Source of the DNA: a virus
Taxonomy: Duplodnaviria; Heunggongvirae; Uroviricota; Caudoviricetes
Length of the DNA stretch: 5,051 bases
Direction: 5' to 3' (one strand)
Virus record (IMG/VR): IMGVR_UViG_2734482004_000002
Positions 1 to 4,976 of the stretch are shown here, piece by piece (within the stretch, counting starts at the first letter, position 1; every line of letters begins with the position of its first letter). The notes under the pieces were generated by a model. It had not been told where the DNA came from. It did no database searches and was given only the letters and a program-made list of their open reading frames with translations. The translations under genes and the position numbers were made by a program.

Positions 1-1
1 G

Positions 2-352
2 CGTCACTGTACGTTGCTCCATGACAGACAGGCATGGAGCAACGACTCCGGTACGGATGAATGGCATAGTTGGGCGCAACATTATGCGGTTAATTTGCCG
101 ACATCTTCTGGAATTGGCTTTGATCGCTCTGATTTAGCCGTTATCGCCGCGATGAATCATATTGGGGTGGCGATGGGAAGGAAACGTCTGGTACAAAAAA
201 GGCTTGCCAGTGGTGAGCTCGTCGCGCCGTTTGGCGATATGACGGTGAAATGCCATCAGCATTATTACATCACTACATTACCGGGCAGGCAGTGGCCAAA
301 AATTGAGGCATTTATTACTTGGTTAAGAGAACAGGTAAAAACCACTTCATAA
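2..352 (+). CDS. dsdC: LysR-family transcriptional regulator, C-terminal effector-binding part only; 5' end lies outside the window. Probably the host gene flanking the prophage.
   Basis: Open frame runs from the window edge (codons in register with 14..352, no upstream stop) to a stop at 350-352. The translated C-terminus is LysR-like by eye. The dsdC name is by locus context only (tRNA-Arg-type att core plus torI-like gene next door, as at the E. coli K-12 argW/KplE1/dsdC locus), not by sequence match. Confidence 0.5.
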   Translation, partial: RHCTLLHDRQAWSNDSGTDEWHSWAQHYAVNLPTSSGIGFDRSDLAVIAAMNHIGVAMGRKRLVQKRLASGELVAPFGDMTVKCHQHYYITTLPGRQWPKIEAFITWLREQVKTTS

Positions 353-523: not shown

Positions 524-545
524 TATTTTACCCGCTATTTTACCC
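524..545. promoter_or_regulatory. Two 10-bp direct repeats TATTTTACCC (524-533 and 536-545, 12-bp period) between the att core and the excisionase gene; candidate excisionase/integrase arm-type binding sites
   Basis: Exact direct repeat read from the sequence, about one helical turn apart; the second copy overlaps the stop codon of the 540-740 gene. Binding function is inference only. Confidence 0.2.
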
Positions 546-740
546 ATTGGCGCGGCTTAAGAGCTTATTTTTGAATTCACAATGGTCACGATATAACCAT
601 CTTGCTCGCCCGTGGATAACTTTGGCTTTTGGCAGGTCGCCGGACTTAATCCGGTCATAGATGAAGGTTTTACCGAAGCCAGTATCGGCCATGATGAATT
701 TCAAATCAACCAGTGAATCAGGTTGTAGTTCGTGTTGCAT
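540..740 (-). CDS. torI: AlpA/TorI-family excisionase (recombination directionality factor), 66 aa
   Basis: ORF MQHELQPDSLVDLKFIMADTGFGKTFIYDRIKSGDLPKAKVIHGRARWLYRDHCEFKNKLLSRANG has the AlpA-type winged-helix pattern. GGAGA Shine-Dalgarno 9 nt before the ATG at 740. Size and position next to an argW-type att core match KplE1 TorI as I recall it. Confidence 0.7.
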   Translation of the reverse strand: MQHELQPDSLVDLKFIMADTGFGKTFIYDRIKSGDLPKAKVIHGRARWLYRDHCEFKNKLLSRANG

Positions 741-780: not shown

Positions 781-808
781 GCAATAAAAAACCGCCATCA
801 GGCGGCTT
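781..808 (-). terminator. Rho-independent terminator at the end of the leftward early operon
   Basis: Minus strand GCCGCC-TGAT-GGCGG followed by TTTTTTATT, directly after the stop of the last operon ORF (TGA sits in the loop). Confidence 0.55.
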
Positions 809-1026
809 GGTGTTCTTTCAGTTCTTCAATTCGAATATTAGTTACGTCTGCATGTGCTATCTGCGCCCACAGCATCCAGGGGTCATAGCAGTCGTTGATG
901 TTCTCTGCTTCGATAACTCTGTTGAATGGCTCTCCATTCCATTCACCNNNNNNNNNNGATGTTCTCTGCTTCGATAACTCTGTTGAATGGCTCTCCATTC
1001 CATTCACCTGTGACTCGGAAGTGCAT
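798..1026 (-). CDS. Small hypothetical phage protein, about 55 aa once the duplicated gap is collapsed; reading frame is interrupted by the assembly gap in the given coordinates
   Basis: ATG at 1026-1024 with GGAGA Shine-Dalgarno 7 nt upstream. If 948-1008 (gap plus second repeat copy) is removed, the frame continues as MHFRVTGEWNGEPFNRVIEAENINDCYDPWMLWAQIAHADVTNIRIEELKEHQAA and stops at 798-800 inside the terminator hairpin. A competing 62-aa frame from ATG 1106 exists. Confidence 0.3.
897..1008. repeat. 51-bp exact direct duplication (897-947 and 958-1008) flanking a run of 10 N (948-957); probable scaffold or assembly artifact
   Basis: Both copies read GATGTTCTCTGCTTCGATAACTCTGTTGAATGGCTCTCCATTCCATTCACC. 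Overlapping contig ends joined by N's is the usual cause. Confidence 0.7.
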
Positions 1027-1067: not shown

Positions 1068-1094
1068 ATAAAAGAAATCCCCGCGAGTGCGAGG
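1068..1094 (-). terminator. Possible weak intrinsic terminator or attenuator hairpin just downstream of the ASCH-like gene
   Basis: Minus strand CCTCGC-ACTC-GCGGGG (6-bp stem with one G-U pair) followed by ATTTCTTTTAT. Weak U-tract; lies inside the operon. Confidence 0.25.
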
Positions 1095-1098
1095 ATTA

Positions 1099-1383
1099 TC
1101 ATTCATTGTCGATATTCACCTTTATAGCGAACACCTTTACCGGTTTATCGCCGAAGTGCGGATGTGTGATTGTCTTGATTTCATATCCACCATACGGAAC
1201 ATCAATTCTGCGGCTGGAATCGTCGCGCTTCGGATATCCCTTCGTGATAATCAGGCGGTCATACTCGCGGAACATAATTCGCTTATTCCAGTAGTCATTA
1301 CACAGGCGATACTCTTCCGTTTTCTCTCCGCGAATCATGGCATCGAAGTATTCACCTTTGACGGCAAGTTGCAGGTTAGCCAC
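1099..1383 (-). CDS. ASCH-domain (PUA-like fold) protein, 94 aa
   Basis: N-terminus MANLQLAVKGEYFDAMIRGEKTEEYRLCNDYW fits the ASCH signature by eye. Start overlaps the upstream ORF by 8 nt. Confidence 0.55.
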   Translation of the reverse strand: MANLQLAVKGEYFDAMIRGEKTEEYRLCNDYWNKRIMFREYDRLIITKGYPKRDDSSRRIDVPYGGYEIKTITHPHFGDKPVKVFAIKVNIDNE

Positions 1384-1663
1384 GACCTTCCTCCTTTGGC
1401 TTGTGAATTTGTATCGTCATGCCGCTTTGAGTGGTGACTACAACGACAGAACCAGGCTTAAGGCTGTTAAGATTGAATGCTTCGTAAAACGAATCCAAGG
1501 CCAGCGCTTTTTTATTCTTCCGGTTCCACCAACGCCATCCATTGCTACAGGCTACACTGACAATCCACTGTCCACTCCTGTAAGCCATATAAAACCAGAT
1601 GAGCAAAACCTGAATGAATGCTATCCAGTCAATAATCGTATATTTCGCGAAGGAGACCATCAA
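1376..1663 (-). CDS. Small membrane protein of unknown function, 95 aa
   Basis: ATGA start/stop overlap with the upstream gene. Hydrophobic segment IIDWIAFIQVLLIWFYMAY followed by a Trp/Arg/Lys-rich stretch WRWWNRKNKK. No family recognised. Confidence 0.55.
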   Translation of the reverse strand: MMVSFAKYTIIDWIAFIQVLLIWFYMAYRSGQWIVSVACSNGWRWWNRKNKKALALDSFYEAFNLNSLKPGSVVVVTTQSGMTIQIHKPKEEGRG

Positions 1664-2232
1664 TTAACCTCCTGCGGCGGTTCCGGTAGAGGCATCCAGT
1701 ACAAGGCGTTCCCTAACCACGATAAAGTGCCGTCGCTCAACTCCACGTATTCCCCTTGTACCTGTCCTGCCATATACTCGCCGTGCTTTGAATAAATTAA
1801 AATCCAATCATCTTGAGCGGGCATTCGCTCACTACAGCTTATCCAACCATCCGGAGTTACCGGATAGTTGCCCGACAGCTCGTTCAACTTGTAAGTTTGG
1901 CTTACAGGTTCGGCTTCCAGTTCTGCAATGCGCTTCTCTGCAGCTTCCAGCTCAACGCGCAGCTTCCCTACCGTTAGCGCAATTTCCTCGTTCTCCTGGT
2001 CGCGGCGTTTGATGTATTGCTGGTTTCTTTCCCGTTCATCCAGCAGCGCCAGCACGGTTTCTGGTCCGGTCAGAAATTTGAAGGCGTTGAGCGCATCAAT
2101 ATCCACACCGTAATCCTTAAGTTCCTGTTCACTTAACAAATCATCATCAACTGGCAACATTAACAGGCGTTCCATTGCCGGAATTGCACGTTCTGCCGCC
2201 TCACGCAGTGCCTGATAGTTAATTTTGGTCAT
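1660..2232 (-). CDS. Ea22-like prophage protein with C-terminal DUF551 domain, 190 aa
   Basis: N-terminus MTKINYQALREAAERA and C-terminal WISCSERMPAQDDWILIYSKHGEYMAGQVQGEYVELSDGTLSWLGNALYWMPLPEPP are typical of the ead/Ea22-like family. GGGGGA Shine-Dalgarno 6 nt before the ATG. Confidence 0.75.
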   Translation of the reverse strand: MTKINYQALREAAERAIPAMERLLMLPVDDDLLSEQELKDYGVDIDALNAFKFLTGPETVLALLDERERNQQYIKRRDQENEEIALTVGKLRVELEAAEKRIAELEAEPVSQTYKLNELSGNYPVTPDGWISCSERMPAQDDWILIYSKHGEYMAGQVQGEYVELSDGTLSWLGNALYWMPLPEPPQEVN

Positions 2233-2233
2233 A

Positions 2234-2533
2234 TCACATCCCCCTGAAGCCGTTGCATTTACGTAAAAAATCGCAGATATAGCCCTTCATTTTTTCGTGC
2301 CAATCTCGATCATTCCCATTGCACCAACCATCAGGTGGAGTCCAGTTTTCTATCAGAGCAGCCATTTTCTTTGCTTTCGCCGGAGTAGCTGTTGCGGTAT
2401 CGCAGTAATGACGAGTGTCAACCAACGTATCCATACCATCGATATCAAGTACGCAAAACCATGTGTGATTCGGCATTTCAACAGATGGTATTTGTTGCCC
2501 ACGTCGACGTTTATCAATAAGACATACAGTCAC
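2234..2533 (-). CDS. Hypothetical Cys-rich phage protein, 99 aa
   Basis: ATGA overlap with the upstream gene stop. Six Cys, three His and four Trp in 99 residues. An alternative internal start at MPNHTW is possible. No family recognised. Confidence 0.55.
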   Translation of the reverse strand: MTVCLIDKRRRGQQIPSVEMPNHTWFCVLDIDGMDTLVDTRHYCDTATATPAKAKKMAALIENWTPPDGWCNGNDRDWHEKMKGYICDFLRKCNGFRGM

Positions 2534-3066
2534 TGGTTGCCTCCTTTGCGAAGCTGGGCAGCAAAGTCAACTAACCACTCAGTCATTTCAACCTTCCCTA
2601 CCAGGTCTGAACCAGGGTGCATACAGCAATCACTCTGCGCCGCTTTGAAATCCTTATACTCATATTCTTGGGCCACCAGATTTTTTGCAGCTTCTATAGC
2701 AGCATCCACCCCCTGCGCCCGCACTTCAGCCAGAAAAGCATCGGTGGCTGGGGTTTCAGTAACATCATCTTCCCATTCGCTAAACTCCTCACGACAAAAG
2801 TCATTAAATTCCTTCTCAGATTGCTTAAGTGAGGTATTTTCAGCAGCCATCTTCGCGCATTTAGCCTCAAGGTTATCAATCGTGATTCCAGCAGAACTAC
2901 ACTCCCGCAACGCCGTTTCCAGTTTTGATTCAAGTTCGCCGAACTTACGGACAAGGTATTCAGCGTTTGTTTCGTTAACCTTTAAATCACTTGGGATGCA
3001 TTTACCTTTCAGAAAACCATCCATCTCAATTAGTGACATTTGTTTCATTTCTTCCCACTCCGCCAC
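2530..3066 (-). CDS. Hypothetical acidic, probably coiled-coil phage protein, 178 aa from the GTG start (about 172 aa if the ATG at 3048 is used); possibly Ea22-like N-terminal type
   Basis: Long minus-strand ORF in the operon. The 3066 start is GTG; in-frame ATGs at 3048 and 3039 are alternatives. Glu/Ala/Lys-rich sequence. Confidence 0.6.
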   Translation of the reverse strand: MAEWEEMKQMSLIEMDGFLKGKCIPSDLKVNETNAEYLVRKFGELESKLETALRECSSAGITIDNLEAKCAKMAAENTSLKQSEKEFNDFCREEFSEWEDDVTETPATDAFLAEVRAQGVDAAIEAAKNLVAQEYEYKDFKAAQSDCCMHPGSDLVGKVEMTEWLVDFAAQLRKGGNQ

Positions 3067-3142
3067 ATCGCATTCAGATATTTGTTGTCATTAACAGAAC
3101 CGAAACTCTTTCTCTTAAGCAAGTCCTCTCATGGTAAATTCC

Positions 3143-3439
3143 TCAGTCATTACTGATAGCGCCATAGCGTGAGCGGTAATTACGCAGGCGCGGGTCGATA
3201 TATTCAGGGAAGTGGGTATATGTGGCTTTGCGGAATGGTCGGATTGATGTCTGGTAAATTCGCTCGCGTTCTTCTTTCTCTGCAAGCCATATACAGTGGC
3301 GAAATTCCTTTTCCTCTTTCGTTTCCTGCGGTAGAGACATTATTCGATCGTAGTTTTTTCTGAATTTATCCAGCACCTCCGATACGGAATTGCCGGAACA
3401 GCGGCGCGGGTCATCCGCACCATACAAAGGCGCTGGCAT
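3143..3439 (-). CDS. Hypothetical 98-aa phage protein; sits where P22 has abc2 (anti-RecBCD), but homology is not shown
   Basis: Good Shine-Dalgarno AAGGA 7 nt before the ATG at 3439. Sequence MPAPLYGADDPRRCSGNSVSEVLDKFRKNYDRIMSLPQETKEEKEFRHCIWLAEKEERERIYQTSIRPFRKATYTHFPEYIDPRLRNYRSRYGAISND. The Abc2 suggestion rests on gene order and size only. Confidence 0.65.
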   Translation of the reverse strand: MPAPLYGADDPRRCSGNSVSEVLDKFRKNYDRIMSLPQETKEEKEFRHCIWLAEKEERERIYQTSIRPFRKATYTHFPEYIDPRLRNYRSRYGAISND

Positions 3440-3462: not shown

Positions 3463-3846
3463 TCAGAATGGGATGGAATCGTCGTATTCAGGATTATTTT
3501 GATGATTGCTACTTTGCTGCTGTTGGCTGTTTCCTGAAGTTGCAAATCCAATCTTTGCATTCAGTAATTCAAGAGTGATTGATTGACCATTTTGCCCCTG
3601 ATAAACATCAACCCTGATGTTTTCTCCGGTAATTTCTACAATGCCTCCTTCAACCAGAACGCTACGATAGTAATCCGCTTGCGCTCCCGGCTTGGCAAAT
3701 ACAACGGCGCTGTAGTTTGTCCATTCTTTCTTTTTTGTCTGGCGATCGTAATACTGAACGCCAGCACGGATGTTGAATCCGATATTTTCCCCGCCCTGAA
3801 ACTCTCTTGCGGGTTTGTTTAGTCTTACTGTAATCGAATGTGCCAT
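3463..3846 (-). CDS. ssb: Phage single-stranded DNA-binding protein (SSB-like OB-fold with acidic C-terminal tail), 127 aa
   Basis: Start ATG shares TAATG with the erf stop. OB-fold-like pattern (KKEWTNYSAVVFAK, VLVEGGIVEITGENIRVDVY), a Gln-rich linker and a C-terminal DDSIPF resembling the DDDIPF tail of bacterial SSB. The ORF track's longer 157-aa version is an upstream extension overlapping erf. Confidence 0.7.
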   Translation of the reverse strand: MAHSITVRLNKPAREFQGGENIGFNIRAGVQYYDRQTKKKEWTNYSAVVFAKPGAQADYYRSVLVEGGIVEITGENIRVDVYQGQNGQSITLELLNAKIGFATSGNSQQQQSSNHQNNPEYDDSIPF

Positions 3847-4451
3847 TAAGCAGTTGCCCCTTCTAATTCGTCTCGTCTGATGTTGTAAACGTCCTGCGCT
3901 TTGTGCTGCTCCGGCGTCCCTTCGAGCATCTTCCACGCTTTGGCGAACGCCTGTTTAAGCTCTTCTACGGTGTTTTTCTGCATTGCTGCGTCAGTGAATG
4001 CTTTTAGAACCTGTTCAGGTGTAAGTGATGGTTTTGATTGCTTTGCTGCTGCGTTCTGCTGATGTTTATGCTCGTCTGTATCTGCATCTTTCGCATCATC
4101 AATGCCGAACAAACCATTGAGGCAATACTTGCGTGCATAAGAGCTTGTAGCTCCCGTAACTTGTGCAGAATCCATTCCTTTCTTGCTTTCTTCCTCTCGT
4201 GCAAGAGCGGTTGCCGTATGACTGTTTTCGCCATCGGTAATAGTTGCCGTGGCTTTCACGTAATACCGATCACCAATCAACACAACTTCATCGCTGATTG
4301 ATAAAAACAGACCGTTCAGTAACGGCTTAACGCCTTCAAGAATATCTTCGCAGCTTCTGTATTTATATTTGCCGAATGAGTTGTACTGATTCTTTGGCGC
4401 GTTCAGATTCTCCTGAATAGCTGCCAGTCTTGCGTAAAATTCTTTGCTCAT
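3846..4451 (-). CDS. erf: Erf-family single-strand annealing recombinase (P22 Erf-like), 201 aa
   Basis: MSKEFYARLAAIQENLNAPKNQYNSFGKYKYRSCEDILEGVKPLLNGLFLS and SSYARKYCLNGLFGIDD are hallmark Erf sequences. True start is the ATG at 4451 with GAGAG upstream; the track's TTG start at 4481 adds 10 residues. Confidence 0.85.
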   Translation of the reverse strand: MSKEFYARLAAIQENLNAPKNQYNSFGKYKYRSCEDILEGVKPLLNGLFLSISDEVVLIGDRYYVKATATITDGENSHTATALAREEESKKGMDSAQVTGATSSYARKYCLNGLFGIDDAKDADTDEHKHQQNAAAKQSKPSLTPEQVLKAFTDAAMQKNTVEELKQAFAKAWKMLEGTPEQHKAQDVYNIRRDELEGATA

Positions 4452-4552
4452 ATGATTGCTCTCAGAATGGACACGGCCCAAGGAAATAACGCTGATTTAA
4501 TACTTCGACTCGGGACAAATTAAGGCATACCCGCATTCCTTCGCGGTCACCA

Positions 4553-4711
4553 TTATGGCGATACCAGAGAGCTTTCTGCGTGTACATGCGTCTCTGTAAC
4601 TTGCTCTCCTTCACTGTGGTTGCAAGTGACATGAATATCTCCTTCGTTACCGATTAATTCTTTAATCTGACGAATGAATTCTTCGTCTGACCAGTTATCT
4701 GTAAAACTCAT
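4553..4711 (-). CDS. Small acidic hypothetical protein, 52 aa, in the positional slot of P22 arf (accessory recombination function)
   Basis: Found by hand translation; not in the supplied ORF track. ATGA overlap with the kil-like stop. MSFTDNWSDEEFIRQIKELIGNEGDIHVTCNHSEGEQVTETHVHAESSLVSP. The arf assignment is positional only. Confidence 0.4.
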   Translation of the reverse strand: MSFTDNWSDEEFIRQIKELIGNEGDIHVTCNHSEGEQVTETHVHAESSLVSP

Positions 4712-4860
4712 TTCCTGCGATACCACGGAAGGTTGATAGCTGATTTCATCGCTTTATTTGCTTCAAGCCACATTTTGGAATCACCAATAAATCTGGCTAT
4801 TACTGCTTTGTTCTGTGCAGCACGAAGCATCTGGTGATTGATGGCTATTTCATTGCGCAT
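4708..4860 (-). CDS. kil: Kil-like host cell-division inhibitor, 50 aa
   Basis: Hand-translated MRNEIAINHQMLRAAQNKAVIARFIGDSKMWLEANKAMKSAINLPWYRRK. The IARFIGDSKM motif resembles lambda/Rac Kil, and it lies directly downstream of cIII as in lambda and P22. Confidence 0.5.
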   Translation of the reverse strand: MRNEIAINHQMLRAAQNKAVIARFIGDSKMWLEANKAMKSAINLPWYRRK

Positions 4861-4976
4861 AATAAGACCTCAACTCTTTTCCATCCGTCACGTAATTTAC
4901 GGGTGATTCGTTCAAGTAAAGATTCATTTAGTTGGAAGGCACCCATGCGAGCGCCTCCCGCGATTGCGTAAATCAT
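4845..4976 (-). CDS. cIII: cIII-like protein (FtsH inhibitor that stabilises CII), 43 aa
   Basis: Hand-translated MIYAIAGGARMGAFQLNESLLERITRKLRDGWKRVEVLLCAMK. The core ESLLERITRKLRDGWKR matches the conserved lambda CIII helix. AAGGAA Shine-Dalgarno 6 nt before the ATG. Overlaps the kil-like start by 16 nt. Confidence 0.75.
   Translation of the reverse strand: MIYAIAGGARMGAFQLNESLLERITRKLRDGWKRVEVLLCAMK

Follow-up and report, generated by a model that had tools for sequence, protein, structure and literature searches.

A five-gene accessory segment downstream of abc2 in a CUS-3-type prophage: a probable product of lambdoid mosaic recombination

Does a tightly packed run of small minus-strand genes in a tailed-phage sequence (IMG/VR record IMGVR_UViG_2734482004_000002; 5,051 nucleotides (nt), hereafter the window) form a new functional system, or is it an ordinary part of a lambdoid early operon? 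An earlier note on this DNA had described positions 1099-3439 as an uncharacterised six-gene accessory block translated as a unit, while allowing that it might be ordinary phage filler; the latter proves to be the better description. It is proposed here, with a probability of about 0.88, that the region belongs to CUS-3, a prophage of Escherichia coli K1, as the non-essential 'ea/hka' accessory segment in the distal part of its early-left (PL) operon, and that it is a product of lambdoid mosaic recombination rather than a co-evolved system. The six minus-strand open reading frames (ORFs) are present with the sizes given in that note, 98, 178, 99, 190, 95 and 94 amino acids (aa), at 3143-3439, 2530-3066, 2234-2533, 1660-2232, 1376-1663 and 1099-1383, respectively, and their location in the variable region of a lambdoid early-left operon, here a P22-like one, is likewise confirmed; the recombination genes (erf, ssb) flank them on one side and the xis/attachment-site end on the other. 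In megablast searches the window matched phiv205-1 (MN340231) with 100% coverage and CUS-3 (CP000711) with 85% coverage, both at 99.7% identity, and on this sequence identity it is taken to be the right end of a CUS-3/phiv205-1 prophage, a P22-like Lederbergvirus beside dsdC. The features of the region, after re-evaluation of starts and families, are as follows.

3143..3439, minus strand: abc2, anti-RecBCD protein 2, 98 aa (PF11043, phrog_656 and P22 Abc2 matches)
3045..3128, minus strand: 3' remnant of a DUF2737 gene, 27 codons (81 nt), no start codon (PF10930, E 2.5e-8, profile positions 28-53 of 53)
2530..3048, minus strand: YfdS-family/HkaH protein, 172 aa from ATG 3048 or 178 aa from GTG 3066 (phrog_614, E 4e-67)
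2234..2533, minus strand: DUF7739 protein, 99 aa, isoelectric point (pI) 7.6, homologue of Sf6 gene 22 (PF24881, phrog_1239)
1660..2232, minus strand: Ea22-family protein, 190 aa (PF13935 and PF04448)
1376..1660, minus strand: DUF4752 protein, 94 aa from ATG 1660 (95 aa from TTG), pI 9.8 (PF15944, phrog_667)
1099..1383, minus strand: putative ASCH-fold protein, 94 aa (predicted fold and motif)
1076..1097, minus strand: terminator-like hairpin, 9-bp stem and T-rich tail, directly after the ASCH stop (consensus scan, pattern match only)

The first of the six genes does not belong among the unknowns. The 98-aa protein matches PF11043 with an E-value of 4e-62 (206.8 bits against a cut-off of 25; residues 1-98 on profile positions 1-97), falls in phrog_656 ('abc2 anti-RecBCD'), and aligns end to end with P22 Abc2 (PDB 8B1T chain A; 8B1T/8B1U) at about 90% identity (E 1.4e-56). 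P22 Abc2 binds RecC and modifies RecBCD, as seen in the cryo-electron microscopy structures 8B1T and 8B1U of the RecBCD-Abc2 complex, and its Pro68 is the residue that engages PpiB (PMC9836394); both Pro68 and the 'IRPFRK' segment are kept in the 98-aa protein. By close orthology to the P22 protein this is Abc2, which would modify RecBCD in the same manner. Between abc2 and erf lies a 127-aa protein (3463-3846, minus strand) annotated as 'hypothetical', whose match to phrog_44 (E 3e-29) and C-terminal acidic tail (DDSIPF) mark it as a short phage single-stranded DNA-binding protein (SSB). Abc2 belongs to this erf-ssb-abc2 recombination module, and the accessory block therefore comprises five genes instead of six.

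Whether those five genes form a unit can be judged from how they travel. With Abc2 as the anchor, the best 80 abc2 loci of IMG/VR (Abc2 98-100% identical) were collected and the genes were placed by tblastn; the 65 loci with at least 2.5 kb downstream of abc2 were counted, presence being defined as at least 70% identity over at least 80% coverage. Twelve different presence/absence patterns of the five genes were found, including the following.

None of the five genes: 26 of 65 loci
ASCH only: 14 of 65 loci
DUF4752 and ASCH: 4 of 65 loci
DUF4752 only: 4 of 65 loci
All five genes: 5 of 65 loci (8 if a variant DUF4752 is allowed)

The distance from abc2 to xis ranges from 2.3 to 4.9 kb across the loci. 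Conservation of the gene neighbourhood across related phages, which the earlier note had named as a check, is thus not seen, and the independent assortment of the five genes behind near-identical abc2 indicates that they are mosaic modules and not a functional unit. Of 5,426 complete E. coli genomes, 110 (about 2%) carry the entire gene block at 100% identity and 3,513 (about 65%) carry pieces of it; the window as a whole is matched over at least 80% of its length in 110 of these genomes, many at 100% identity. Several E. coli phage-plasmids of about 96 kb share the stretch 1944-2751 at 98% identity; it takes in the Ea22 head, the DUF7739 gene and the portion of the YfdS-like gene that encodes the C-terminus, and the match is evidence of exchange between P22-like prophages and plasmid-borne phages.

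The ORFs themselves are real genes rather than chance ORFs, since a Shine-Dalgarno (SD)-like sequence stands 6-13 nt upstream of every probable start, every one of them has a family match in Pfam and/or PHROG with E <= 1e-21, and all six are annotated in CUS-3, phiv205-1 and RefSeq E. coli genomes. The SD sequences are AAGGA before abc2, GGAG/GGGAAG before ATG 3048, AAGGAGG before GTG 2533, GGGGGA before ATG 2232, AGGAGG before ATG 1660 and AAGGAGGA before GTG 1383. GTG 3066 has no SD sequence, so the second ORF is more likely to encode 172 aa from ATG 3048, the start used by PGAP and in the CUS-3 record, than 178 aa. For the DUF4752 gene ATG 1660 is the better start, with AGGAGG upstream, a product of 94 aa and a 1-nt TGATG overlap, and is also the choice of PGAP. 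Close packing and the 8-nt overlap at 1376-1383 (GTGGCTAA) were described correctly in the earlier note, but its 'ATGA' junctions were not: positions 2530-2533 read GTGA, a GTG start over a TGA stop, and 1660-1663 read TTGA, within a junction (1658-1663, TTGATG) that gives a 1-nt overlap with the ATG and a 4-nt overlap with the TTG. At 2230-2236 the stop and start are separated by a single nucleotide (TGA, 1 nt, ATG). A genuine ATGA is found at 3045-3048, where the stop of the DUF2737 remnant overlaps the ATG of the YfdS-like gene. PGAP marks this remnant as a pseudogene without an N-terminus, and related loci have an intact DUF2737 (HkaI-like) gene at its position; the remnant is the scar of a past recombination or deletion.

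The overlaps indicate translational coupling between neighbours, but the view of a block co-translated as a unit goes too far: the exchange of single genes in the 65 loci speaks against the block being one functional unit. A consensus scan revealed no sigma-70-like promoter within 1099-3439. The hairpin at 1076-1097 coincides with the 3' limit of the compact gene series, and the same scan detected a second, stronger terminator-like hairpin at 789-808, after a 55-aa ORF. A 265-aa antisense ORF (2297-3094, plus strand) over the YfdS-like and DUF7739 genes was considered and rejected, the longest antisense frame being 105-154 codons in diverged relatives.

Two of the five accessory proteins have the same kind of architecture. 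The YfdS-like protein is acidic (pI 4.45), and phrog_368 matches its C-terminal two thirds; no Pfam match and no DUF551 was found in it. Over residues 9-48 it shows 73% identity to K-12 YfdS (residues 2-41, E 3e-20) and the remainder is unrelated, so its membership of the YfdS family holds for the N-terminal head only and not for the whole protein including DUF551. The 190-aa protein (pI 4.4) had been labelled Ea22-like/DUF551, and this is borne out: PF13935 (Ead_Ea22) covers residues 3-104, the head and coiled coil (E 1e-29, 104 bits against a cut-off of 27), and DUF551 (PF04448) covers residues 129-187 (E 6e-11, 43.5 bits against a cut-off of 22). A head, a coiled coil and DUF551 make up the Ea22_V2 type of Stx phages (PMC10834534), and Ea22 of lambda and Stx phages is a pro-lysogenic, tetrameric protein (PMC7093339, PMC10834534). 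RefSeq (PGAP) splits this gene (window 1660-2232; L001 7599-8171) into a C-terminally truncated pseudogene and a 54-aa ORF. The frame is uninterrupted and is annotated whole in CUS-3 and phiv205-1; the split is an annotation artefact, apparently caused by the chimeric domain architecture.

No pairwise sequence similarity was detected between the YfdS-like and the Ea22-like protein, which have their architecture alone in common: the former combines another head (of the YfdS type) with another C-terminal domain. Domain shuffling was examined by cutting both proteins into head, coiled-coil and C-terminal segments, which were searched against all ORFs of the abc2 loci; the C-terminal domain of the YfdS-like protein is called CTD-X below.

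YfdS head with CTD-X: 44 ORFs
YfdS head without CTD-X: 14 ORFs
YfdS head with DUF551 (the K-12 YfdS arrangement): 1 ORF
Ea22 head and coiled coil with DUF551: 13 ORFs
Ea22 head and coiled coil with other C-terminal domains: 7 ORFs
DUF551 on other N-termini: 41 ORFs
CTD-X on other N-termini: 4 ORFs

In addition, the Ea22 head is connected to CTD-X by phrog_368. These combinations, together with phrog_368, indicate that the two proteins belong to one combinatorial class, in which an oligomerising head and coiled coil is joined to an exchangeable C-terminal domain.

The 94-aa protein at the end of the block had been called ASCH-like. It matches phrog_625 and is named 'ASCH domain-containing' by PGAP, but no Pfam family, the ASCH profile included, was reached at E <= 0.01, and an ASCH-family profile run against PDB sequences reached no ASCH entry. 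The label is supported instead by structure prediction, which gives a PUA-like beta-barrel with helix alpha1 between strands 1 and 2 and ranks ASCH-type matches above YTH and EVE domains, and by the octapeptide G19-E-K21-T-E-E24-Y-R26, which fits GxKxxExR and falls in the alpha1-beta2 segment; the definition and the alpha1-beta2 location of this motif were described for EOLA1 (PMC6803910). G19, K21, E24 and R26 are invariant in 35 homologues, as is Tyr12. TthASCH (2DP9) has the same Tyr-(8)-Lys-x-x-Glu-x-Arg spacing, and in EOLA1 (5Y7D) the motif occupies identical residue numbers. Predicted fold and motif, rather than a Pfam profile, thus argue for ASCH membership.

The closest known proteins are those of the ASCH GKER subgroup (TthASCH, EOLA1, TRIP4) and the N4-acetylcytidine (ac4C) amidohydrolase YqfB. 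Other ASCH members are reported to act as ac4C amidohydrolases, tRNA deacetylases or single-stranded RNA nucleases (PMC6972931, PMC5615036, bioRxiv 10.64898/2026.02.27.708502). A 2026 preprint reports removal of ac4C from tRNA by 19 ASCH proteins, no phage member among them, and finds that catalysis in the 'GKER' subgroup (TthASCH, EOLA1, TRIP4) depends on the Lys/Glu pair of the octapeptide (bioRxiv 10.64898/2026.02.27.708502). Judged by the predicted fold, the 94-aa protein would be a small amidohydrolase of this subgroup that binds nucleic acid or modified cytidine, and by analogy its putative substrate is most likely ac4C, free or in tRNA. Across Escherichia, Salmonella, Klebsiella, Enterobacter and Erwinia the protein is 74-100% identical, with 40 invariant positions. 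Homologues occur in 332 phage records, including virulent Salmonella siphoviruses, Ralstonia phages and a Sinorhizobium jumbo phage, and this presence in both virulent and temperate phages of several bacterial families suggests a role during lytic growth. The CUS-3 record annotates a plus-strand ORF over the ASCH gene, which is probably spurious.

DUF7739 and DUF4752 are small families of enterobacterial phages for which our literature search found no mention in any paper. The 99-aa protein matches DUF7739 (PF24881) over its full length with 77.6 bits (cut-off 27). It had been described as Cys-rich; this copy does contain six Cys residues, but only Cys93 is invariant in the family and no metal-binding motif is present, and a Zn-binding reading was rejected on account of this single invariant Cys. 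The protein is predicted to be a small alpha/beta protein, and its fold matches are weak; small inhibitors of the DNA-mimic or immunity-protein kind (DMP12, CdiI) were considered for it. A Foldseek search of predicted viral structures (BFVD) returned no significant match, and a DNA-mimic reading is disfavoured by the charge, the pI being near neutral. The family has 46 clusters in a set of 5.8 billion proteins and 72 representatives in one of 1.84 billion, and is found in 20 phage records, including Sf6 gene 22 and HK75. It is possibly a small soluble protein-binding inhibitor of a host protein. The DUF4752 protein (PF15944, E 2.6e-34, 117.5 bits against a cut-off of 27) was rightly called a membrane protein: a single hydrophobic stretch spans about residues 9-27 (Kyte-Doolittle mean of 1.82 over 19 residues), and after it the family alignment shows an invariant GWRWWNRK motif. 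The positive-inside rule predicts that the last 55 residues are cytoplasmic, and the sequence is consistent with a single-pass inner-membrane protein bearing a cytoplasmic C-terminal domain. DUF4752 comprises 47 clusters and occurs in 70 phage records, all enterobacterial. In both families the invariant motifs persist down to 47-55% identity. For all five proteins other than Abc2, PDB sequence searches gave chance-level matches only, and the NCBIfam search of the block proteins yielded nothing useful.

The six proteins divide into one that is well characterised, two that are partly characterised and three of unknown function; the earlier note would have been refuted had all six matched characterised families, which they do not. 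The term 'uncharacterised' fits the block insofar as most of its members have no assigned biochemical function, but it does not fit Abc2, the Ea22-family protein or the 94-aa protein with its ASCH signature.

In the proposed mosaic segment, leftward transcription from PL under N antitermination would follow induction or infection, and the tightly packed run would be translated with overlapping stop and start codons coupling neighbours. The products would then act separately. Abc2 would modify RecBCD, as its P22 orthologue does. The two acidic proteins with a head, a coiled coil and a C-terminal domain may serve as oligomeric adaptors that show a variable C-terminal domain to a host target and, by analogy with Ea22, may bias the lysis/lysogeny or host-survival outcome. 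The ASCH protein would bind, and probably deacylate, a modified cytidine, whether within RNA or as the nucleoside alone, DUF7739 would bind and inhibit a host protein, and DUF4752 would act at the inner membrane. Several points weigh against this account. The functions assigned here, except that of Abc2, are drawn from fold, motif or family phenotype; one in five AF2 models of DUF7739 is confident; the two terminator-like hairpins could end some transcripts; and by analogy with the prophage-state phenotype of K-12 yfdS (hydrogen peroxide (H2O2) sensitivity, PMC3105296) some of the genes may act in the lysogen and not in lytic growth.

The alternatives differ in how far they depart from the mosaic reading. 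One of them, which we regard as possible yet well short of an even chance, refines rather than replaces it: one or more of the ASCH, DUF7739, DUF4752 and coiled-coil proteins would be a counter-defence or host-takeover factor, like other genes beside abc2 and ral in lambdoid accessory regions, each acting alone against a specific target in host immunity or physiology. The genes sit beside abc2, the anti-RecBCD gene, where accessory content is hypervariable, and the screen of Silas et al. drew counter-defence and abortive-infection-trigger genes from abc2-containing accessory regions (bioRxiv 10.1101/2023.04.06.535777); the distribution of ASCH homologues over virulent and temperate phages also fits a role in lytic growth. 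These points are offset by the lack of detectable homology to described anti-defence proteins, by the weak fold matches and the empty BFVD search, by the near-neutral DUF7739, which is unlikely to be a DNA mimic, and by the silence of the papers searched on DUF7739 and DUF4752. As candidate roles, the ASCH protein could be an eraser of ac4C on host elongator tRNA-Met or an ac4C scavenger, by which translation would be reprogrammed or a tRNA-directed defence blunted; DUF7739 could inhibit a host nuclease in the manner of an immunity protein; and DUF4752 could be a membrane-anchored exclusion or division factor. That at least one of ASCH, DUF7739 and DUF4752 has a new host-directed activity in lytic growth we nevertheless consider unlikely. 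Also unlikely is expression of the genes from the repressed prophage for lysogenic conversion or host benefit, as with yfdS and yfdQRST of K-12 CPS-53. Here the chromosomal site and operon position match those of K-12 yfdQRST-torI, and the first 40 aa of the YfdS-like protein are those shared with YfdS; in K-12, deletion of yfdS sensitises the cell to H2O2 (PMC3105296), and overexpression of yfdQRS or yfdQRT inhibits DnaA-dependent initiation of replication (PMC4776307). The matches to the K-12 region are, however, limited to this head and to torI, YfdQ and the DnaA-binding YfdR being absent and the DUF551 of YfdS missing from the YfdS-like protein, and with no promoter-like site in 1099-3439 the lysogen should not express these genes as long as PL is repressed.

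The two remaining explanations are both highly improbable. That the six genes are one co-functioning system with interdependent parts, such as a toxin-antitoxin, defence or exclusion operon, might be suggested by the tight packing, the overlaps of 4, 1-4 and 8 nt and the want of an internal promoter-like site. Overlapping gene junctions are, however, the norm across lambdoid early operons; many different subsets of the genes lie behind the same abc2 allele, with none of them, or ASCH only, the commonest; and PADLOC-DB gave no defence-system match for any of the six proteins, the best E-values (0.015-0.07, partial matches) not being meaningful. The idea that the ORFs other than abc2 are decaying, non-functional filler draws on the DUF2737 remnant, which is evidence of decay in the region, and on the dispensability of the region in related phages, the ea genes of P22 among them. 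It is countered by five intact ORFs with strong SD sequences, by the conservation of the ASCH protein across genera and by the invariant motifs of DUF4752 and DUF7739.

The remainder of the window agrees with its placement at a prophage end. RefSeq/GenBank annotation gives the minus-strand gene order cIII-kil-erf-ssb-abc2-...-torI-attR, followed by dsdC, with these flanking features.

4845-4976, minus strand: cIII (RefSeq/GenBank annotation)
4708-4860, minus strand: kil (RefSeq/GenBank annotation)
4462-4726, minus strand: two overlapping small ORFs, 56 and 57 aa, between erf and kil (phrog_1723 and phrog_2123, both labelled 'recombinase')
3846-4451, minus strand: erf (RefSeq/GenBank annotation)
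798..1026, minus strand: 55-aa early-left gene in intact genomes, phrog_676 E 4e-40 (PGAP and CUS-3 annotation)
540..740, minus strand: torI/xis excisionase of a KplE1-type module, the final gene before attR (100% identical to K-12 TorI)
about 450-466: attR (phiv205-1 annotation)
1-352, plus strand: 3' end of host dsdC (RefSeq/GenBank annotation)

The 56- and 57-aa ORFs are the counterparts of Sf6 genes 29 and 30, and they may have Arf-like accessory recombination functions. CUS-3, HK620 and Sf6 are all described as having the KplE1-type recombination module, in which int sits at attL and the excisionase gene at attR (PMC2951348). The phage records conflict over attR, which is placed at about 760-775 in CUS-3, leaving torI/xis outside the prophage, and at about 450-466 in phiv205-1; the latter is favoured because the K-12 CPS-53 boundary falls 73 nt beyond torI. 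A run of 10 N (948-957) stands between exact 51-nt direct repeats (897-947 = 958-1008), the sole notable repeat in the window and outside the six genes. All matching genomes are 61 nt shorter, and by this comparison the N run and duplication (897-1008) are a scaffolding or assembly artefact; it breaks the 55-aa phrog_676 gene and joins two frames into a false 102-aa ORF (798-1106). No RNA gene was found in the window with Rfam (E <= 1) or, for tRNA, ARAGORN.

The finding is therefore real but ordinary: this is the published CUS-3 hka/ea region, every ORF of which is already in a named family, and its sequence does not set it apart from hundreds of equivalent lambdoid accessory regions. What the analysis changes is that Abc2 is removed from the list of unknowns and that the remaining genes, as independent mosaic modules, become single-gene rather than cassette candidates. 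The ASCH gene ranks first among them, as it comes with a concrete prediction, ac4C/tRNA deacetylation via K21/E24; ASCH, DUF7739 and DUF4752 retain a modest interest as candidates for a role in host takeover or counter-defence, and any that proved to be counter-defence or tRNA-modifying would add to the catalogue of phage host takeover. The coiled-coil proteins are of interest for a combinatorial exchange of heads and C-terminal domains that links K-12 YfdS with the Ea22 family.

Comparison with known systems places the region within this picture. CUS-3 and phiv205-1, P22-like Lederbergvirus prophages at the argW/dsdC site, share both gene content and gene order with the window, where existing annotation runs from ECRS218_0056 to ECRS218_0061 and includes hkaH and hkaJ; nothing substantive differs, the window adding only the 10-N gap and the 51-nt duplication. 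Relative to P22 Abc2, the protein of the window has a single inserted residue and, in its C-terminal third, a few substitutions, and at the position of P22 abc1, which is absent here, the window has the SSB gene. Ea22 of lambda and Stx phages is likewise acidic, has the same N-terminal and coiled-coil region and lies between the recombination genes and xis, whereas the C-terminal domain of lambda Ea22, solved by nuclear magnetic resonance, is unrelated to that of the 190-aa protein. The cryptic K-12 prophage CPS-53/KplE1 occupies the same chromosomal site with the order yfdP-yfdQ-yfdR-yfdS-yfdT-ypdJ-torI-attR-dsdC; torI is identical and the operon position equal, but YfdQ, the DnaA binder YfdR and YfdT have no counterpart in the window, and where K-12 YfdS has DUF551 the window protein has a different C-terminal domain. 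The mosaic is illustrated by Sf6, whose genes 25-18 (abc2 ... xis) follow the same operon layout: gene 22 encodes a 92%-identical DUF7739 protein, after a DUF2737/HkaI gene and before an Ea22-like gene, and genes 24, 23, 20 and 19 replace the YfdS-like, DUF4752 and ASCH genes, which is mosaicism of the kind seen in the abc2 loci. Descriptions of the corresponding Sf6 and HK620 regions as mosaic go back twenty years.

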